Origin: an uncultured Dehalococcoidia bacterium
Lineage (GTDB): Bacteria > Chloroflexota > Dehalococcoidia > Dehalococcoidales > UBA1222
Length of the DNA: 64,000 nt
Direction of reading: 5' to 3'
Assembly: GCA_903844845.1 (NCBI GenBank)
Contig: CAIMVG010000008.1
Coordinates: 12,672-76,671 of the forward strand
The notes beneath the pieces were generated by a model. It had not been told where the DNA came from. It ran no database searches and saw only the letters and a list, made by a program, of their open reading frames with translations. Below, piece by piece: positions 5,790 to 41,591 of this stretch. The translations under genes were made by a program, and so were the position numbers. The stretch's first letter is position 1. Each line of letters begins with the position of its first letter.

Positions 5790-6326
5790 ATGGCTATCAA
5801 ATCGAAAAATAGCGATTCGGTTGGCGATGGTCTCGTTACGTTCCGCGACGTCGCCAGTGCGATGAAGGGCGAGCGTGTCCTAAGAAGTTCAGGCTACGAG
5901 GTCAAACTGGTAGCACCTCCCGCTGAACTGCGCCTGGGCTGCGACCTGGCGCTGGAGGTCAACCTGGTCGAGCAGGCGGGCATCGAGAGGGTCTTCACAG
6001 ATGAGGATGTAACCTTTGTAAGTTTCACACCCCTTTCCACTCATTCCTCACCGATGTGCGACATCGTCAAGGTGACCGATTTCGGCCAGTGGGTGATGAT
6101 TAAGTGCGGCAATATGAAGCTCTCTTTTGAGAAAGCCACCGGGAAAATCGTGAACGTCTCGGGCGGCGGCTGCCCCGACATACCCTACCTCAACGCCGAA
6201 ATGGTTGACAAGACCCTTACCGCTGCGCCGCATCCCAACGAACTGGGTTATACCCTGTGCGCCACCATGCTTGAGCGTGCCTACGAAGAAGCTCTGAACA
6301 TCTATAATGGAGATACCCGCTCATGA
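5790..6326 (+). CDS. DUF3343-like (putative S/Se carrier fold) protein with extra C-terminal domain
   Basis: N-terminal FRDVASAMKGERVLRSSGYEVKLVAPPAELRLGCDLAL resembles DUF3343. C-terminal half (GGGCPD) is unassigned. RBS AAGGA. The stop overlaps the next start (ATGA). Confidence 0.6.
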   Translation: MAIKSKNSDSVGDGLVTFRDVASAMKGERVLRSSGYEVKLVAPPAELRLGCDLALEVNLVEQAGIERVFTDEDVTFVSFTPLSTHSSPMCDIVKVTDFGQWVMIKCGNMKLSFEKATGKIVNVSGGGCPDIPYLNAEMVDKTLTAAPHPNELGYTLCATMLERAYEEALNIYNGDTRS

Positions 6327-7207
6327 TGCTGCTTTTCGGAACCATCCCGGATAAAAACCTGCCGATGACTTATGGCCAGGTGCGCCAGGAAGGCGATTAC
6401 CTCTACGCGGACGGCCAACGTTTTTCTCGCACCCAGGGCACAGGCGCCATGATCAGCGCGGCGCTGGCCATATGCAACTATTTCAAACTGGATCCCCCGC
6501 ATGTGCTGGTGGCAGGCGACATCGGAGACGGCAAAGGCACACGGGACATCTACAAATACCTGACCGAACATGTGGTCGAACTGGCACCCGCAGTGATCAC
6601 CATGCATTACAGCCTGCCTATCATGGCACTGCTGAAAAAATTGTGCGACACCATAAAAGGTTGCGAAAAGCGTCCATTCATGATCGCCGACGCCGGGGCG
6701 ATGTACGCTGCCAAGGGCGCCGGGTTGGCAACGGAATTCGATATCTTTACACCTGACACGTCCGAAATTGCTTTCCTGGCTGATCCGCAAGCTACACATC
6801 CGGCCTATATCTCGCATCATCTTCTTGCTTGCGATGCAGATAAAATTCCAGGCCAGATTGCAGATGCCTTCAAGAACAATAGCGCAGCCAAATTGCTTCT
6901 GGTGAAAGGCAAGACGGATTACGTGGCGCAGGCCAGAGAAATACTGGCTACCATCGATGAGCCCAACGTTCCTACCCTGGAACCTATAGGCGGCACGGGG
7001 GACACCATCACCGGCCTGGTTTCCGGCCTGGTATATGCCGGGATGGAACCCAAGAACGCTGCGATTTTTGCCTGCCGCACCAACCGCACGGCAGGGATTT
7101 TGGCCCGACCGACTCCCGCCACCAAAGTGAAGGATATAATAGACCAGTTCCCGGTGGTCTGCAGGGACTATTACGATGCATGGAACAAAAATGTAAAAAT
7201 ACTTTAG
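6323..7207 (+). CDS. YjeF_C / ribokinase-like small-molecule kinase or dehydratase homologue
   Basis: GGTGDTITGLVSGL resembles the GG(S/T)GDxLxG lid of NAD(P)HX-dehydratase-type kinases. Translationally coupled to the upstream gene. Confidence 0.55.
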   Translation: MMLLFGTIPDKNLPMTYGQVRQEGDYLYADGQRFSRTQGTGAMISAALAICNYFKLDPPHVLVAGDIGDGKGTRDIYKYLTEHVVELAPAVITMHYSLPIMALLKKLCDTIKGCEKRPFMIADAGAMYAAKGAGLATEFDIFTPDTSEIAFLADPQATHPAYISHHLLACDADKIPGQIADAFKNNSAAKLLLVKGKTDYVAQAREILATIDEPNVPTLEPIGGTGDTITGLVSGLVYAGMEPKNAAIFACRTNRTAGILARPTPATKVKDIIDQFPVVCRDYYDAWNKNVKIL

Positions 7208-7232
7208 TATTTTTGATAAAGGAGGGAAATAG

Positions 7233-7838
7233 ATGGCCAGATGGTTATCGAAAAAAGACCCCACCCCTTCGGCTCCCAAAAAGATACATACCAGCAAAAA
7301 CACGATGCCAACCCCTTTCATTCTTGTCAGCGCTTTTGCCTTGATATTGGGTCTGATCAGCTTCCCCAAATTCCCTTGCCCGACTTGCGACGGCACAGGG
7401 ATACTGGCTTCATCCCAGGGTTTAAAAGCCACGGTAGCCGCCTGTAATTTGATCGAAAGCTACATCCCCTTGACATGTTGCGACCACCCGCAGGTCCAAT
7501 ACGCTTATGATGTCAGTCTTTTGATAGAGAACGATGGAGCGAAAACTATTAACGGCACCGTAACCGTGAGTTTTTATGATATCGAGCCAGCACTCACTTC
7601 AAGCAAGGATGTAAATACAGCCGCGGAAGGTGTTTTCCCGGTACAAGTTGATGTACCCGGAGGCACAACTGTAACAGTTGACCAGCAACTTACATTCATC
7701 TCCGTATCTGATATATTGAACCAGCCGCATAGAGTGACGGTCCAATCCGGAAACGTAGAAACAAAGAACGCCTGTCCATTGTGCAACGGGACAGGCAAGC
7801 TGCCTTTTTATAGCTGGTTAGAGGCCCATATCAGATGA
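7233..7838 (+). CDS. Single-pass membrane protein with two DnaJ-type zinc-knuckle motifs
   Basis: AAGGAGGG RBS. TM helix PFILVSAFALILGLISF. CPTCDGTG near the helix and CPLCNGTG near the C-terminus. The stop overlaps the next start. Confidence 0.65.
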   Translation: MARWLSKKDPTPSAPKKIHTSKNTMPTPFILVSAFALILGLISFPKFPCPTCDGTGILASSQGLKATVAACNLIESYIPLTCCDHPQVQYAYDVSLLIENDGAKTINGTVTVSFYDIEPALTSSKDVNTAAEGVFPVQVDVPGGTTVTVDQQLTFISVSDILNQPHRVTVQSGNVETKNACPLCNGTGKLPFYSWLEAHIR

Positions 7839-8320
7839 AACTCAAGATAAACCCTAACTATATTGTCATCACAGGGTTCACAATCGGAATTGCTGCGGCG
7901 GCAGCCCAGGCTTTCTTTGATGTACAACCTCCGCAGGCATATGGAGTCTGTTTGATCGGTCATCCATCAATACTGGTCAAATGGTTTATGAACCACATCT
8001 TCGGAATGCATTTGCCAATAAGCACGGCATTTTTAGTTTATCCGTCTTTGCTGGTAGCAGGCATAACAGGTGGAGCTCTATTTTCATCTATAAAGAGCGG
8101 GGAATTCAAGACAACATTAAAGATGAAACCTGCCAGCACACGCAGCAAGTTCAATGCCATACTTTTTGGTTTTCTTGTGGCTAACTTTGGATTGATCGTC
8201 GGCGCCTGTCCCATACGAACCGCGCTCCTGGTAAGTTACGGAAGCGTATTAGGGGGCATAATGCTGGCAGCTATCATTTTTGGGGTTTTTCTGGCAACAC
8301 TCCGTTTACGTCGATCATAG
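7835..8320 (+). CDS. YeeE/YedE-family sulfur/selenium transport protein, N-terminal half of a split transporter
   Basis: Polytopic. Cys-containing motifs AYGVCLIGH and VGACPIRT. Confidence 0.7.
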   Translation: MKLKINPNYIVITGFTIGIAAAAAQAFFDVQPPQAYGVCLIGHPSILVKWFMNHIFGMHLPISTAFLVYPSLLVAGITGGALFSSIKSGEFKTTLKMKPASTRSKFNAILFGFLVANFGLIVGACPIRTALLVSYGSVLGGIMLAAIIFGVFLATLRLRRS

Positions 8321-8335
8321 AAAGGACCAATTATT

Positions 8336-8773
8336 ATGTTGGCTTTTATAGCGACTTTGGTGATAGGTTTGGTTCTGGGATATCTCGGGCAAAGGTCTCG
8401 TTTTTGCGCAGTAAGCGGTTTCCGGGATTGGTTTTTAATCCGTGATACTCGCCTGCTTAAAGGATATGGGGCGCTTTTAGCCGGCGGAGTGCTAGGGTAT
8501 GCATTTTTTAAACTTATAGGCGGGAAAATACTCAATTACCCCCTTGGAATGGATATAGGTACCGCAGGGGGAGCCGCAGTAATCGCCATTGCCGCAATCG
8601 GGATGGCATATTTTTCTACGCTGGCTGATGGCTGTCCATTCAGGCAACATGTAGCAGCAGCAACAGGCAGTACAACCAGCCTTTTATATTTGCTGGGTTT
8701 TTACACAGGCATAGTCTACTTTTTCCTGGTGACTACAAATATAGTGAGCATTATCTCGAAGTTAATAACCTGA
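8336..8773 (+). CDS. YeeE/YedE-family sulfur/selenium transport protein, C-terminal half
   Basis: RSRFCAVSGF and ADGCPFRQ motifs typical of the YeeE/YedE sulphur-transport domain. Polytopic. Confidence 0.75.
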   Translation: MLAFIATLVIGLVLGYLGQRSRFCAVSGFRDWFLIRDTRLLKGYGALLAGGVLGYAFFKLIGGKILNYPLGMDIGTAGGAAVIAIAAIGMAYFSTLADGCPFRQHVAAATGSTTSLLYLLGFYTGIVYFFLVTTNIVSIISKLIT

Positions 8774-8937: not shown

Positions 8938-10329
8938 TTATTCCCAGCCGAACGGCGGGAGATCCAGGTCCCAGAATTCATCAGGGTTTTTATTCAGGCC
9001 ATTTCCCATCAAGCCATCTAACATTTTGACAGCTTTGTCGAGAGACGGTGCGGTCGCGATTGCATTATTCAAGATATTCCTGAAAATGGTCCCGTTTATA
9101 CCCCGGGAAAGCGGGCAAACTGCGAAACAGGTACTACAGCCCTCGGAATAGCCCATGATCTTTATATTGGTTAAACACGCTGCTTCATCGCGATGCCAGC
9201 TCTTGATGCCTGTTTGCTGATAATCCCCCCGGATATTCCACGATGTTTCCGTGTCTTTGGGAATCGCCCCAGACGGGCAATGATCGGCGCATTTCTTACA
9301 TATGCGGCAAAAACGCATGACTCCGAAATCAACCGGTTTACCCGGAGCGAGCGGGAGGTCGGTGATAAGTTTGAACACCCTCTGTCTGACTCCATACACA
9401 GGGGTCACCATGTGCATCGTTCGGCTATGCTCTCCAAGTCCGGCCATAATACCGAACCCAACAGAGGAACCGAGGGAGTCATAAGGATTGGCTTCTCCCA
9501 AACCCATATAACCAAGCCCCCGAAGAAAAAGTTGCAACTGGCCCTGGATGATGCTTTTAAGGTTATATGCATTTTCGGTCGGCGCCATAATCATCTGCGT
9601 GGGGGCGCTTTGTACTAGCTGATCGGCCATGCGTATCGTGTAGACTATTACCCATCGTGCCTTCCTGGGTATGATCCGTTCGGTTTTTGTTTCCGACGCC
9701 TGTGTCGCATCCGAGAAGGTCAGCTTCAAGCCCTGCGACGCGCCGGTGCCTGTGTCATACGAATATACCAGCTTTTCCGTGGTAAGCGAGTCAAGTTCCA
9801 CGAAACCGACTTCGGCCGCCCCGTGAAAACGCATAAAAGCGCGAATCATCCTGGCGTTTTCCTCCGGTTTTCCTTCGTAGACGGGGACTCCGAGGTCCCC
9901 TGGTGTCTGGTTTGTCGTTGGCCCGATGAAGCTGGTCGGCGCGAAGTATGTCGCATTGACGAAAGCATCGTCTTTCAGAGTATAGCCAGGCGTATTTGCC
10001 TTGAGACGACTTAACCGGTTGTTTCTCTGGGCCTCCATGACGTGGAGATATTGTGAAGTTCCCAGGGCTTTCTGCAGGCCGCTGGCCCAGACTACCTTGC
10101 TGTAGTCGAAGCGGTTCATTGCAGTCCAGTCAATATCTACCGTCGGCTTTTCTACCTCTCGTATATAAGAGGGCCGCATGGAAACAGCCGCCGGGGATGC
10201 CATGATTTCGTCAAGGTCATGTACCGCCCGGGCAGGGAAAAGCACCGGCGCAGCACCGCATGCCAATGCTCCCAAACCGAGCGATTTGAGGAAATCCCGT
10301 CTGCTGATGCTCGAATGGTATTTATTCAA
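8938..10329 (-). CDS. rdhA: Reductive dehalogenase homologue, catalytic subunit (RdhA)
   Basis: Twin-arginine signal SRRDFLKSLGLGALACGA. C-terminal Fe-S motifs CRICKKCADHCP and CSTCFAVCP. 463 aa. Confidence 0.85.
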   Translation of the reverse strand: MNKYHSSISRRDFLKSLGLGALACGAAPVLFPARAVHDLDEIMASPAAVSMRPSYIREVEKPTVDIDWTAMNRFDYSKVVWASGLQKALGTSQYLHVMEAQRNNRLSRLKANTPGYTLKDDAFVNATYFAPTSFIGPTTNQTPGDLGVPVYEGKPEENARMIRAFMRFHGAAEVGFVELDSLTTEKLVYSYDTGTGASQGLKLTFSDATQASETKTERIIPRKARWVIVYTIRMADQLVQSAPTQMIMAPTENAYNLKSIIQGQLQLFLRGLGYMGLGEANPYDSLGSSVGFGIMAGLGEHSRTMHMVTPVYGVRQRVFKLITDLPLAPGKPVDFGVMRFCRICKKCADHCPSGAIPKDTETSWNIRGDYQQTGIKSWHRDEAACLTNIKIMGYSEGCSTCFAVCPLSRGINGTIFRNILNNAIATAPSLDKAVKMLDGLMGNGLNKNPDEFWDLDLPPFGWE

Positions 10330-10439: not shown

Positions 10440-10641
10440 TTCAATATTAAATCCGAAAAATACCTCAGTTGCGGAGGGGGCTCCCTTCAAAACAAGGAGA
10501 CCATTAGTGCGAGCAATTTACAATATGCCGCTGATCAGTTAAAGGCGCAGGTAAGTACGCCCTATGTATATTTGACCAGCTTAGTTGAAACTTCCAATCG
10601 TCGCTGGATAGAATGTGGAATCAGAATCAAGAGAGAGAATT

Positions 10642-11238
10642 ATGCAATTTCGAAAATTTTTCACGGTAGTAGTTATAATGCTTGCAACTGTTTTAACAAG
10701 TGAGGCTTGCGGTGCGAATACTTCCATTGCCCCCACTACGCCCCAACCGACCGCCAAAACCGGTACGACGACATCAATTACTACAAAATCCGCTTCGCCT
10801 TCGACTCTTTCAGAAACAGTGGCGAATGTGACTCCGGTCCCGTCCAGTTCCGAACCCATCCCAACTGCCACCCCCTCGACAACACCGCCGGTTTCATCAA
10901 TCGAATTTTCAACTTACTCCACGCTTTCGACCAAGGGCACGACAGTCTATTACAACTACTGCGCACCTTGCCATGGGAGCACAGGGCAGGGAGCGAACGG
11001 GCCGGCCCTATGGAAGCCCGGCGGCACCCTGGGGCGAAGCGACAACGCGGTCTTCTTCGCCAATAACGCGGCGGACATGCTGGATTTTATTTCATATTTC
11101 ATGCCGCTGTATGCCCCGGGCAGCCTGTCGCGCAGTGATTACATCAATGTGACTTGTTTTCTTTTGATTCAATCTGCGGATGTTCAGCCGATGGACACAT
11201 TTGTCGAGAACCAGCTGAAAAATATCATTTTAAAATAA
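10642..11238 (+). CDS. Monohaem c-type cytochrome lipoprotein
   Basis: Signal peptide with lipobox LTSEAC. Thr/Pro-rich linker. Haem motif CAPCH with a Met ligand candidate (YFMPLY). ATG at 10642 after GAGAGAG (listed ORF starts at 10615). Confidence 0.8.
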   Translation: MQFRKFFTVVVIMLATVLTSEACGANTSIAPTTPQPTAKTGTTTSITTKSASPSTLSETVANVTPVPSSSEPIPTATPSTTPPVSSIEFSTYSTLSTKGTTVYYNYCAPCHGSTGQGANGPALWKPGGTLGRSDNAVFFANNAADMLDFISYFMPLYAPGSLSRSDYINVTCFLLIQSADVQPMDTFVENQLKNIILK

Positions 11239-12051: not shown

Positions 12052-12204
12052 TTATTTCCCGTACTGTTTCATGGTTATATCATCTTTGGCCCATCCCGTA
12101 TCTACCAGCACCAGCAGTGATTCTCCAGGATGTTGTCTCATAGCTTTTTGAGTCCTGACGATTGGAATGCCCCTGGAATAGCCCCTGACATTTACCTCTA
12201 ACAT
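12052..12204 (-). CDS. Small TusA/SirA-like ORF (50 aa) lacking the catalytic Cys
   Basis: Not in the ORF track because it is under 60 aa. GGAGG sits 6 nt before the ATG. VNVRGYSRGIPIVRTQKAMRQHPGESLLVLVD aligns with TusA [33 protein letters not shown], with CP replaced by RG. C-terminally short. Confidence 0.35.
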   Translation of the reverse strand: MLEVNVRGYSRGIPIVRTQKAMRQHPGESLLVLVDTGWAKDDITMKQYGK

Positions 12205-12298: not shown

Positions 12299-12946
12299 TC
12301 AAGCTGTGGCCCTTGGAATTAATTCGACATGCCAGGTGTCACCCACCTTGGAACTACGAAAATTTAGCCCCTGTTTTCCGGCGAACTTACCGAGGTTTTC
12401 AACTTCAACATTGGTTTCTACTATCACTTCAAGCGTTTGGCCTCTCGCTTTGTTCAAGGCACGTTTGACCTGGTGTAGACTGTCCGGTACCGGCAGTCCT
12501 CGCGCCGGATCGATATGGGCACCGCGGGTATCCAGTATCCCGTTTTCCAGGTTGAGCGGGGTTCCCCGATATTCTTGCATCAGGCGTGTTTCGCCTTCCT
12601 TGAACCCCTCATCGGTTAAATCTCCTCTACCGAACAGCACACAATGGCATGAGCCGTGCTTTTGAATATCCTCTTGGGCAAATTTACAAGGGCACAGCAG
12701 CCGTTTATTTACCTCGGCATTTTCGCCAGGCTCGAAGCATGGGCAATAGCGTTTGCCAAACATACTTTCACTTTCTGCGATCCATATCTTCAGGTTGGTA
12801 TAAAACATCCAGTGCGGGTTTACCTTTAACCCTTTGGTAGCTGCATATTTCTTTATCCACACATCATGTTTCTTGATTTCCTTATGGTAGTCAATGTATC
12901 CGGAAAAGAACTCTTTCATCATGGGTGCCATTTCTTTTAATTTCAA
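12299..12946 (-). CDS. Ferredoxin:thioredoxin reductase catalytic-subunit-like protein fused to a Cys-less TusA-like domain
   Basis: CPC...CPC...CHC triad (RYCPCF, LLCPCKF, GSCHCVLF). C-terminal GLPVPDSLHQVKRAL...TLEVIVE resembles TusA without the CP cysteine. TTG start 7 nt after GGAGGAG. Confidence 0.75.
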   Translation of the reverse strand: MKLKEMAPMMKEFFSGYIDYHKEIKKHDVWIKKYAATKGLKVNPHWMFYTNLKIWIAESESMFGKRYCPCFEPGENAEVNKRLLCPCKFAQEDIQKHGSCHCVLFGRGDLTDEGFKEGETRLMQEYRGTPLNLENGILDTRGAHIDPARGLPVPDSLHQVKRALNKARGQTLEVIVETNVEVENLGKFAGKQGLNFRSSKVGDTWHVELIPRATA

Positions 12947-13016: not shown

Positions 13017-13108
13017 ATGAGTCATGTTGGCTCATGTCGAAAACAGTAGAGATTTGGTTAACGGGAATTTTCATTTCTCTTTTTATACGTAAACGATATT
13101 CCCCTTTA

Positions 13109-13627
13109 TCACTTTATCTTGTTCAGTGCGTTCTGAAGCTCGTTCTGAGTTTGGAACGCGCCGCGTCCGATGTACTGGATAATCCCATCTCGGTTGATGA
13201 AAATAGCAGTGGGGATGGCAGAGACGCCATATTCCAGCGCCACCGAGGAAGCGGTGTCCAACAGAACAGGCACGTCATATTTGTGGGACTGCATAAAAGC
13301 CGAAATGACCTTACTCGAATCATTAATACCAACGGTGAGTATAACTACCCCATCGGCTTTGGATGCTTCCTGATCGTATGCGGTTTGAATAAGGGGAAAC
13401 TCCCCTATGCAGTACCCTCACGTTGTGGACCAGAAGTTTATCATTACGGGTTGCCCGAGCAGGGCTGATAGCGTTAGCGTGTTTCCATCCAAATCCTTGA
13501 GCGTGAAATCGCTGGCCTTGTTGCCAACGCGGTTTCCGAATTCCGTGCTGCTTCCTGTGGTGGCACACCCCGGAATAAGCGAAATTAAAATCGATACTCC
13601 TATCAATGCAGCAACTATTTTTCTCAT
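13109..13627 (-). CDS. ResA/TlpA-family thiol:disulfide oxidoreductase lipoprotein with predicted selenocysteine (UxxC)
   Basis: ORFs 13418-13627 and 13109-13294 share one frame, and the 123 nt between them are open. The only interruption is TGA at 13418-13420 (complement). Read-through gives INFWSTT-U-GYCIGEFP, aligning with ResA NFWGTWCEPCKKEFP. Lipobox LIPGC. Lies 7 nt downstream of ccdA. Confidence 0.8.
13388..13408 (-). other. SECIS-like hairpin downstream of the in-frame UGA
   Basis: RNA: UGA-GGGUACUGC-AUAGGGG-AGUUU-CCCCU(U)AU. The apical loop begins 16 nt after the UGA and has G at loop position 2. Confidence 0.5.
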
Positions 13628-13634
13628 TATTATC

Positions 13635-14324
13635 CTAACCTTTCAGGTAGAGGAAGCTGAGCTTGCCGAGTGATATTAGTACCCCAGCAACCACCAGCAA
13701 CCCTCCACTGCCAAAATAAATCCAGCGGCTATAGCGGCCGATGCGTTTTAGCATGGGTGTTAATCTGCTGAAAAATGCTCCTATCAATAAAAATGGCAGC
13801 CCCATTCCCAAGGAATAGGCCGCGAGGAGCAAAGCTCCTCGCCCTGCCGTACTGGAATTTAAGGCCAGGGTAAGCACGCTGCCCAGTAAGGGGCTCAGGC
13901 ATGGTGTCCAGGCCACGGTGAAAGCTGCTCCTACAATGAAAGAACGGATATAACCGCTCCTACGGCCCGTTTCCGGTGAAAGGCGTTTTTCGAAATTGAG
14001 CCACGGGATAAAACCAGCTCCCAGCATGAAAAGCCCAAAGAAGATTAACAGACCTCCAGATATCTTCTTCACCACCGCTGAATTTGGATTGATGCTAATG
14101 CCAGCCAGCCCAGCCAATGCGCCTGTTAAAGTGAACACCAGGCTCATTCCGACAACGAAACTGAGGGCGTGTAAGAAGAGAGGCCAGCGGCTTTCATCTT
14201 TCCTCTCCAAAACGTCGGGGCCGGCCAGACTGGCGAGGTATATCGGCACCATGGGGAGAACGCAAGGCGTTATAAAAGAGGCAATGCCTGCAGCGAATGC
14301 GGCCCAGACGGTGATGTTATCCAT
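13635..14324 (-). CDS. ccdA: Cytochrome c biogenesis / thiol-reductant transfer protein CcdA (DsbD family)
   Basis: Six-TM protein with the two conserved Cys in TPCVLPMVP and TPCLSPLL. Confidence 0.9.
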   Translation of the reverse strand: MDNITVWAAFAAGIASFITPCVLPMVPIYLASLAGPDVLERKDESRWPLFLHALSFVVGMSLVFTLTGALAGLAGISINPNSAVVKKISGGLLIFFGLFMLGAGFIPWLNFEKRLSPETGRRSGYIRSFIVGAAFTVAWTPCLSPLLGSVLTLALNSSTAGRGALLLAAYSLGMGLPFLLIGAFFSRLTPMLKRIGRYSRWIYFGSGGLLVVAGVLISLGKLSFLYLKG

Positions 14325-17227: not shown

Positions 17228-17545
17228 CTAGACCAGGGCTTCAATCTTGGGTTTCAGGGTACTTTCAGGGAGTGCGCCGACAGTCGTGTCTTTCTTAATC
17301 CCGTTCTTGAAGAAGACCATGGTCGGTATGCTCCTTACCCCGTATTTCTGTGACATTGCAGGATTGTCATCGACATTTATTTTGCAGAATTTCACTTTAC
17401 CGCTATATTCGCCTGCCAGCTTTTCGGTTACAGGCGCAAGCATGCGGCAGGGGCCGCACCAGGGCGCCCAGAAGTCGACGACTACGGGAGTAGTTGATTT
17501 TATTACCTCAGTTTCAAAGTTCTGATCGTTGATTTCCAGTACCAT
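17228..17545 (-). CDS. trxA: Thioredoxin
   Basis: WAPWCGPC active site. 105 aa. Confidence 0.9.
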   Translation of the reverse strand: MVLEINDQNFETEVIKSTTPVVVDFWAPWCGPCRMLAPVTEKLAGEYSGKVKFCKINVDDNPAMSQKYGVRSIPTMVFFKNGIKKDTTVGALPESTLKPKIEALV

Positions 17546-40767: not shown

Positions 40768-41535
40768 CTACTTGATAACCAGCACGGGGAAAAAGATCTG
40801 CCAGGCCAATAGCGCCTTGGCGGTCAGGCTGAGGATGATATACACCTTTTCACCGAAGAGATAATCGCGCCAAGGCCCCACCTTTTTGTACTGCAAGATC
40901 ATATTGACGGCGAAGCAGTTGAAGAAGATGAAGAGCGAGATGATGATGCCGTAGACGAATCCGGGAGGCGATACGTTCAGGCCCGGAGCGATAGTGTAGA
41001 TGACGACCGCCACCCAGGGGATGGCCCCGGCGAAGCAGCCCATCCAGAAGGGCAGAAGGTTTTTGTTGCCCGGCTTCTCATATTTCTCCTGCAGAGCGCC
41101 AAAGAGTATCATGCTGGCGTTGACTCCGAAGATGCCCAGCAGGGCGGCGATATCGCTGATGCCCACGATCTGGGAGATGAGCACTATCATCAAAGACGAA
41201 CTGAAGAAATACTCTATCCAGCGCCCGTAGTTGCGGCTCTCCAGCAGGTTTCGCTTGTACCAGGGGAAAACCCAGGGAGAGGCGATGCTCAATAAGGCCA
41301 GGGCCGATATGGTCAGGAAGGCGAAAACGCCCCAGCCGGTGGCGATATTGAATAACTGGTGAAGCGCAGGAGCAGTGCCGGGAGGCCCGGCCATGAAGGT
41401 GGCGGTCACCGGCAGGGAGAAATTGTTGGTGAGTACGGCGATCATGACCGCTTGAACGGCGAGTATCAAACCGACCACGATGTTCCAGACACGCAACTTC
41501 TTGACTTGCTTTTCTACAGATTGATCAACATCCAT
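40768..41535 (-). CDS. Heliorhodopsin
   Basis: Collinear with heliorhodopsin 48C12 as I remember it: RWIEYFFSSS (counter-ion Glu), FGVNASMILFGALQEKY, LLPFWMGC, PGFVYGIIISLF, and the Schiff-base Lys in ILSLTAKALLAWQIF. ATG at 41535 is 6 nt after AAGGAGGG. Confidence 0.9.
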   Translation of the reverse strand: MDVDQSVEKQVKKLRVWNIVVGLILAVQAVMIAVLTNNFSLPVTATFMAGPPGTAPALHQLFNIATGWGVFAFLTISALALLSIASPWVFPWYKRNLLESRNYGRWIEYFFSSSLMIVLISQIVGISDIAALLGIFGVNASMILFGALQEKYEKPGNKNLLPFWMGCFAGAIPWVAVVIYTIAPGLNVSPPGFVYGIIISLFIFFNCFAVNMILQYKKVGPWRDYLFGEKVYIILSLTAKALLAWQIFFPVLVIK

Positions 41536-41591
41536 ACTTTTCCCTCCTTTTGACGAAACTCTACCACACATTGAAACATTTTATATCGGAA

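Follow-up and report, generated by a model that had tools for sequence, protein, structure and literature searches.

The stretch of DNA analysed here, hereafter the window, is 64,000 nucleotides (64 kb) long and derives from an uncultured Dehalococcoidia bacterium of the Dehalococcoidales (GenBank assembly GCA_903844845.1, contig CAIMVG010000008.1). On its minus strand, directly downstream of a ccdA gene, lies a reading frame of 172 codons that carries an in-frame TGA at codon 70. An earlier reading made from the letters only (the sequence-only reading) had taken this frame for a selenocysteine-containing lipoprotein of the ResA/TlpA type rather than a broken gene. The analysis reported here agrees in substance: the locus is very probably one intact gene, whose product would be an exported, probably lipid-anchored ResA/TlpA-like thiol-disulfide reductase with selenocysteine (Sec, or U) as the attacking residue of a U-G-Y-C motif. 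The features of the locus are as follows.

13109 to 13627, minus strand: predicted complete selenoprotein gene of 172 codons, with Sec at codon 70 (from the frame, Pfam and the match to ResA).
13418 to 13420, minus strand: UGA, putatively read as U70, where CxxC homologues have their N-terminal, nucleophilic Cys (from the homologue alignment).
13389 to 13408, minus strand: candidate bacterial selenocysteine insertion sequence (SECIS) hairpin (from the minimum-free-energy fold and comparative data), with the core of the 5' arm at 13402 to 13406, the loop AGUUU at 13397 to 13401 and the core of the 3' arm at 13392 to 13396.
13565 to 13627, minus strand: putative N-terminal export signal with a lipobox-like L-I-P-G-C (from the sequence pattern).
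13633 to 13636, minus strand: AGGA, a Shine-Dalgarno-like element 5 nt before the ATG that overlaps the ccdA stop (read directly from the sequence).
13635 to 14324, minus strand: ccdA, a membrane electron transporter of the DsbD_TM family and the predicted reductant (PF02683, 81 bits).

Two minus-strand open reading frames (ORFs) in the ORF list of the window, 13418-13627 and 13109-13294, share one frame. Direct translation of 13109-13627 yields 172 codons with a sole internal stop, the TGA at 13418-13420, in addition to the terminal stop (13109-13111, also TGA, with TAA immediately after it), just as the sequence-only reading had described. The peptide around the internal stop is ...LGQPVMINFWSTT*GYCIGEFPLIQ..., giving a local motif of T-U-G-Y-C when codon 70 is read as Sec. 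The ATG at 13625-13627 is separated by 7 nt from the TAG stop of ccdA (13635-13637), a spacing also given correctly before, and the overlap of AGGA with that stop suggests co-transcription and translational coupling with ccdA. Within the window TGA is the terminal stop of 15 of 48 genes, including the selenoprotein gene itself. The genetic code is therefore standard, and a changed code with TGA reassigned was ruled out.

The conservation of the TGA is informative about the nature of the gene. Metagenome and genome collections were scanned with an alignment of close relatives, followed by a tblastn search over all loci. In the latter, 160 homologue matches place Cys opposite codon 70 and 14 place a stop there; all 14 of these stops are TGA. 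Besides the window's own, ten distinct TGA sequences were found, from different metagenomes and metagenome-assembled genomes (MAGs), with 36-97% identity to the window protein. Sequences with TGA at exactly codon 70 include L010 (97% identity), L011 (67%), L012 and L013 (61%), L090 (60%, a Dehalococcoidales MAG), L001 (57%), L091 (49%, a Dehalococcoidales MAG), L033 (43%), L015 (41%), L016 (38%), and L051 (36%, with the motif W-U-H-F-C). One of them, L001, was found through the protein P0005, whose match starts right after the active site, and reads ...NFWDTA*QYCVEEFPLIQ... across this region. Each TGA orthologue match contains exactly one stop, with approximately 100 codons downstream free of further stops and frameshifts. 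Identity to the window protein is 31-96% after the TGA and 37-100% before it, and the two parts are thus equally conserved. Both kinds of homologue that the sequence-only reading had named as support, those with Cys aligned to U and those with TGA, were accordingly recovered, and its statement that the gene is not broken is borne out.

These data bear directly on two other explanations of the TGA. The first is an error of sequencing or assembly for TGC or TGT, and a change of that one base is all that would be needed to restore Cys. The identical TGA is however present in L005, L006, and L007, three assemblies made independently, from different runs, for the same organism, as well as in the 97% variant L010 and nine more distant sequences, and a protein cluster look-up records the 69-aa N-terminal fragment that ends at this codon (P0079) on 16 contigs; the probability left to an error is negligible. 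The second is a pseudogene or truncated gene, in which the TGA would be a nonsense mutation leaving a 69-residue lipoprotein fragment or nothing functional. Public gene callers do report either the 69-aa fragment or ORFs on the opposite strand, and Sec machinery is lacking from the roughly 80 kb of sequence inspected (detailed below). Against this stand the sharing of the TGA by ten other distinct orthologues down to 36% identity, the conservation of the downstream codons at the level of the upstream part, and the position of the stop exactly on the catalytic Cys column; moreover, a product that stops short of the active site would be without a thioredoxin fold. Loss of function is consequently considered very improbable. 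Sequencing error, recent nonsense mutation and codon reassignment are excluded, because the TGA is conserved across assemblies and orthologues and the code is standard.

For domain and structure searches of the read-through product, Cys was written at the TGA position. The product matches the Pfam families AhpC-TSA (PF00578; 87.4 bits against a cut-off of 26, covering profile positions 1-124 of 124, E ~1e-24) and Redoxin (PF08534; 85.1 bits against a cut-off of 26.6, positions 2-144 of 148). Its best relatives of solved structure are chains of Bacillus subtilis ResA (E ~3e-21, residues 35-171 against 3-136), in which W66, U70, C73, E76, and P139 align with active-site residues, the first Cys being Sec in the window protein. 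When 15 homologues are aligned with it, the first Cys of their CxxC shares a column with the TGA, and two ResA-type residues, the Glu (E76) and the cis-Pro (P139), do not vary. The end-to-end alignment with ResA/TlpA that had been proposed, with the TGA falling on the first redox Cys, is thereby confirmed. The family assignment held in part: the fold is ResA/TlpA-like, while membership of ResA in the strict sense, as a partner of ResBC in cytochrome c maturation, is not established. The NCBIfam ResA subfamily model is the top-scoring model for the window protein and for all five other Sec orthologues scored, but its cut-off of 170 bits is missed by each of them (110 bits for the window protein, 91-123 for the others). 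Neither resB nor resC (CcsBA) is present in the window, and no ResB or Cytochrom_C_asm domain occurs among its genes. The score below cut-off and the lack of resB/resC in the window make 'ResA/TlpA-like' the name that can be defended. The N-terminus has a start rich in Lys and Arg, a hydrophobic stretch and the pattern [LIV]-x-x-[GAS]-C, with pattern and Cys kept in all Sec and Cys orthologues. The protein is likely a lipoprotein with Cys21 as the predicted lipid-modified first mature residue, the Pro at position -2 being atypical.

A hairpin lies just downstream of the UGA. The structure AUAGGGG-AGUUU(C)-CCCCUUAU is present in the minimum-free-energy fold (A18-U37 of a 66-nt fold), with one bulged or mismatched U among the outer A-U/U-A pairs, a distance of 16 nt from UGA to loop, and a G within the loop. 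The element described in the sequence-only reading is thus found as stated, and it is conserved, covarying and nearly specific to TGA forms. Among TGA sequences the stem comprises 5-7 bp, begins 10-11 nt after the UGA, and carries a loop of the form A-G-U-[U/A]-[U/G]. The minimal element of Escherichia coli fdhF has a spacing of 11 nt, which the spacing of the TGA-form hairpins matches. A comparison of raw hairpin energy between Sec and Cys forms was significant but confounded by G+C content, and was replaced by a count in a fixed register and a null model of codon resampling. In the count, positions +14 to +18 pair with +24 to +28 (the U of UGA being 0), consecutive pairs are scored outward from the loop, and at least 5 bp are required. 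A stem of this kind occurs in 12 of 12 distinct TGA sequences and in 4 of 145 Cys sequences (Fisher p = 6e-15; p = 1e-9 after collapse to seven lineages). It is also enriched relative to peptide-matched Cys homologues ([EG]E[FYILMV]P), 3 of 13 of which possess it (p = 9e-5). All five core pairs are formed in the 11 aligned TGA sequences (11/11), and RNAalifold gives the identical helix.

It may be asked whether this hairpin is simply a by-product of the [GE]-E-F-P-L peptide and codon usage, in a selenoprotein gene that is real but has its SECIS elsewhere. Three of the five core pairs are invariant, with G18-C24 and G15-C27 set by the first bases of codons for conserved residues. The three stem-bearing sequences among the peptide-matched Cys homologues point the same way, and 12.6% of bacterial selenoprotein genes have no canonical SECIS according to BSepDB (PMC13326102). 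However, when the peptide was held fixed and synonymous codons were resampled, a stem of at least 5 bp arose with a probability of only 0.03-0.13 per sequence, as against its presence in every TGA sequence. Every TGA sequence uses GAG for both Glu residues, though GAA is preferred in the window (65%). Of the 11 TGA sequences, seven form the middle pair (20-30) as A-U and four as G-C. Covariation is perfect between the Gly/Glu codon (GGG/GAG) and the third base, a synonymous site, of the Pro codon (CCC/CCU), so that a non-synonymous change is coupled with a synonymous one. The closest stem-less Cys relative, L170, lost the stem by synonymous changes, and no alternative conserved helix was given by RNAalifold within 40 nt of the UGA. 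That the hairpin is incidental and the element lies elsewhere is unlikely, and the structure at 13389-13408 is retained as the candidate SECIS.

Several observations weigh against a selenoprotein gene with this SECIS and are collected here. Taken singly, the window hairpin barely exceeds shuffled sequences in stability (z = -1.8), and its significance derives from the comparative data. It is short (5-7 bp) and is situated inside the conserved coding stretch E-E-F-P-L. Two Cys orthologues, L004 and L171, have kept the hairpin, which for that reason is not strictly diagnostic. No relevant Rfam family was found, either in a gathering-threshold search of the whole window or in a permissive search of 13250-13500; two sub-threshold hits were attributed to chance. 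None of the curated NCBIfam selenoprotein models reaches its cut-off with the window protein or with five other Sec orthologues. No selA, selB, selD, or tRNA-Sec appears in the public gene calls that cover the window and about 16 kb of flank (approximately 80 kb together). ARAGORN found no tRNA in the window, and no tRNA-Sec is present among the 19 tRNAs in 169 loci. No second convincing selenoprotein gene emerged when the 64-kb window was scanned for pairs of ORFs in one frame with a single TGA between them. Finally, the whole case is made from sequence. As circumstantial evidence on the other side, the window does hold genes of sulfur/selenium-trafficking type (Se_S_carrier, YedE-like and TusA-like).

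Several of these points would also suit readthrough of the UGA by a near-cognate or suppressor tRNA with insertion of Cys or Trp, the hairpin being stimulatory or incidental. Sec genes were not seen in the sequence inspected, the hairpin is short and is retained in the Cys forms P0001 and P0003, and the identity of an inserted residue cannot be told from sequence data. Yet the site is that of a redox-active Cys, and Sec/Cys pairs at such sites are a hallmark of selenoproteins (PMC1794560). TGA also serves as a normal stop in the window, and no such hairpin comes after the TGA that terminates the gene itself. Furthermore, the class Dehalococcoidia contains Sec-rich genomes, including MAGs with 46-49 selenoprotein genes (PMC13326102). 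Readthrough with an ordinary amino acid is thus improbable, and incorporation of Sec at codon 70 remains the preferred reading.

The linkage to ccdA that had been pointed out in the window proved to be conserved immediately upstream of both the Sec forms and their nearest Cys relatives. A ccdA homologue (72-99% identity) is directly upstream in seven Sec sequences (the window, L010, L011, L012, L013, L090, and L001) and likewise in the Cys relatives L002/L004, L170, and L171. ResA is reduced via CcdA, in a pathway that runs from thioredoxin to CcdA to ResA. A candidate for the cytoplasmic end of such a pathway is encoded nearby.

17228 to 17545, minus strand: cytoplasmic thioredoxin (TrxA) with the active site WCGPC (TIGR01068, 131 bits, above cut-off).

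It is plausible, by analogy, that this thioredoxin is the electron donor to CcdA; a thioredoxin gene is also found near ccdA in L002/L003. In the mechanism that we infer, UGA codon 70 would be recoded by SelB carrying Sec-tRNA(Sec), with SelB recruited by the short hairpin, which begins 10-11 nt past the UGA and has a conserved G-U in its loop. The preprotein would then be exported and anchored by its lipid on the outer face of the membrane, where the Sec70-Cys73 selenenylsulfide would be reduced by the co-transcribed CcdA with electrons from cytoplasmic thioredoxin. The resulting selenolate would attack disulfides of extracytoplasmic client proteins, apocytochrome c being one candidate. The redox chemistry in this scheme is taken from the literature on ResA, TlpA, and CcdA. 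An exported c-type cytochrome of 207 aa with a CAPCH motif (10615-11238, plus strand; Pfam Cytochrom_C above cut-off), encoded 2 kb from the ccdA-tlpA pair, is a possible client of the selenoprotein. In a literature search that combined selenoprotein terms with CcdA, none of the ten papers listed contained 'CcdA', a result that does not by itself prove the pairing to be undescribed.

The relationship of Sec and Cys forms was examined in a neighbour-joining tree of 146 homologues, built without support values. All Sec forms included in the tree, except L051, fall into one clade, in which three Cys relatives are nested: L004 (P0001), L170 (P0002), and L171 (P0003). The whole clade has [U/C]-x-Y-C in place of the usual C-x-P-C. 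Of the four Cys sequences that bear a stem in spite of lacking the UGA, two are the nearest Cys relatives L004 and L171 (6 and 7 bp). In L170, the third close Cys relative, the stem-disrupting changes are GAG to GAA and CUN to UUC. This pattern tentatively suggests reversions, in the direction from Sec to Cys, that left behind a fossil hairpin. The Sec outlier L051 groups near L018, a Cys homologue with CPPC that has a 6-bp stem in the same register, and the two may represent a second Sec/Cys conversion. A broader proposal can be made, to which we give an even chance: that an ancestrally Sec-dependent Dehalococcoidales subfamily, with U-x-Y-C and tied to its own CcdA, has undergone at least two reversions to Cys with fossil SECIS elements (P0001 and P0003) and is uncovered by existing models and annotation. 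If true, organisms that respire with extracytoplasmic, oxygen-sensitive enzymes would carry a selenol at the outer surface of their membrane, and the subfamily would be systematically absent from selenoproteome counts of the class.

The absence from public annotation is apparent in the window. The gene callers place two ORFs on the opposite strand here, 13034-13468 (plus strand, 144 aa) and 13407-13673 (plus strand, 88 aa), neither of which has a Pfam hit; they are shadow ORFs of the conserved minus-strand gene. We conclude that the gene is a real but so far unannotated representative of a selenoprotein type already known, and probably belongs to a distinct Dehalococcoidales subfamily (UxYC). 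Missed by public gene calls and by curated NCBIfam models alike, the subfamily is invisible in counts of Dehalococcoidales selenoproteomes. It would add an exported, CcdA-coupled selenoprotein to bacteria whose energy metabolism is located outside the membrane. The Sec and Cys forms, with hairpins that are either kept or decayed, offer a compact natural series for the study of Sec/Cys interconversion and of a minimal bacterial SECIS. The general understanding of selenoproteins is unchanged, UxxC selenoproteins of the thioredoxin fold being already well established.

The surroundings of the ccdA-tlpA pair contain further genes related to sulfur, selenium, and redox metabolism. Directly downstream of the selenoprotein gene, 12299-12946 (minus strand) encodes a domain resembling the catalytic subunit of ferredoxin:thioredoxin reductase (FTR; CPC...CPC...CHC) fused to a TusA-like domain. 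This protein gives a weak match to the NCBIfam 'FtrB family double-selenoprotein', yet is an all-Cys form. After it comes a TusA-like ORF of 50 aa (12052-12204, minus strand) in which Arg apparently replaces the catalytic Cys. In L001, L002/L003, and L171 the position right after the tlpA orthologue is occupied by a gene for a membrane protein of the DUF1648/SdpI family, where the window has the FTR-like/TusA fusion. A run of genes of sulfur/selenium-trafficking type extends over 5790-8773 on the plus strand.

5790 to 6326, plus strand: Se_S_carrier/DUF8182.
6323 to 7207, plus strand: carbohydrate-kinase-like protein.
7233 to 7838, plus strand: CxxC-rich protein of 201 aa.
7835 to 8320 and 8336 to 8773, plus strand: two half-size YedE/YeeE-like genes.

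The YedE-like pair shares a frame and was considered as a further Sec site, but was rejected since the codon that separates its members is TAG. A reductive dehalogenase homologue (8938-10329, minus strand; PF13486 plus Fe-S domains) has a twin-arginine leader, SRRDFLK, and no rdhB-like gene was noted around it in the public gene calls. Elsewhere in the window, a heliorhodopsin gene (40768-41571, minus strand; PF18761) is adjoined by a DUF2177 gene, in a genome whose apparent placement in Dehalococcoidales is supported here by gene content and by the MAGs L090 and L091 with their orthologues.

Several known systems can be compared with the product of this gene. Selenoproteins described as UxxC 'Prx-like thiol:disulfide oxidoreductases' have been known since 2004-2006 and were among the first to be found computationally in bacteria; Kryukov and Gladyshev reportedly predicted the family. 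UxxC Prx-like/TlpA-like selenoproteins constitute an established predicted family, and published lists give the Prx-like UxxC proteins of PF00578 fold as high-confidence predictions (PMC1088965, PMC1794560, PMC13188914). The window protein has the features by which the Prx-like family is defined, a PF00578-type fold and UxxC rather than the TxxU of peroxiredoxins (PMC1088965, PMC13188914). As in members of that family (UxxC or UxxU) such as Geobacter sulfurreducens WP_010940744.1, the predicted Sec takes the place of the first Cys, Cys homologues are far commoner, and the SECIS takes the form of a small hairpin that lies shortly after the UGA and has a G in its loop. The likeness is one of fold and motif: the clade of the window protein differs in its U-x-Y-C, lipobox and conserved ccdA partner, and comes from Dehalococcoidales rather than from Deltaproteobacteria, Clostridia or marine plankton. 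The nearest Geobacter-type relative found is a Cys form, P0050, with 32% identity.

Two curated NCBIfam models describe selenoproteins of related kind. With the TUGYCR-motif redoxin selenoprotein (NF053656) the window protein shares the T-U-G-Y-C string and the superfamily, but it scores 20 bits, far below the cut-off of 100. The ResA-like WAxxUGC selenoprotein model (NF041054) gives 29-60 bits for the window protein and the other Sec orthologues scored, against a cut-off of 300; it describes a family twice as long, with a U-G-C motif in contrast to U-x-Y-C.

The closest parallels in architecture have Cys at the active site. B. subtilis ResA (PDB 1st9, 1su9, and 3c71) and the TlpA/CcmG/DsbE group have in common with the window protein an outward-facing thioredoxin fold tethered to the membrane and the motif W-x-x-[C/U]-x-x-C, with the conserved Glu (E76) and, further on, the cis-Pro (P139) after it. 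The window protein differs from them in having a predicted Sec instead of Cys, xYC instead of xPC, and a lipobox instead of a transmembrane anchor, and resB/resC are not adjacent to its gene. PDB chains 2yp6, 4hqz, and 4hqs, annotated as 'thioredoxin family protein', also match the window protein (E ~1e-13), and we take these to be the surface lipoproteins Etrx1 and Etrx2 of Streptococcus pneumoniae. The CcdA-Etrx-MsrAB system of that organism has Cys active sites, and its client, a methionine sulfoxide reductase, is encoded in the operon, whereas no msr gene is adjacent here. What the two systems would share is an outward-facing lipoprotein of the thioredoxin family on a monoderm membrane, whose gene lies next to ccdA and which is reduced by CcdA.

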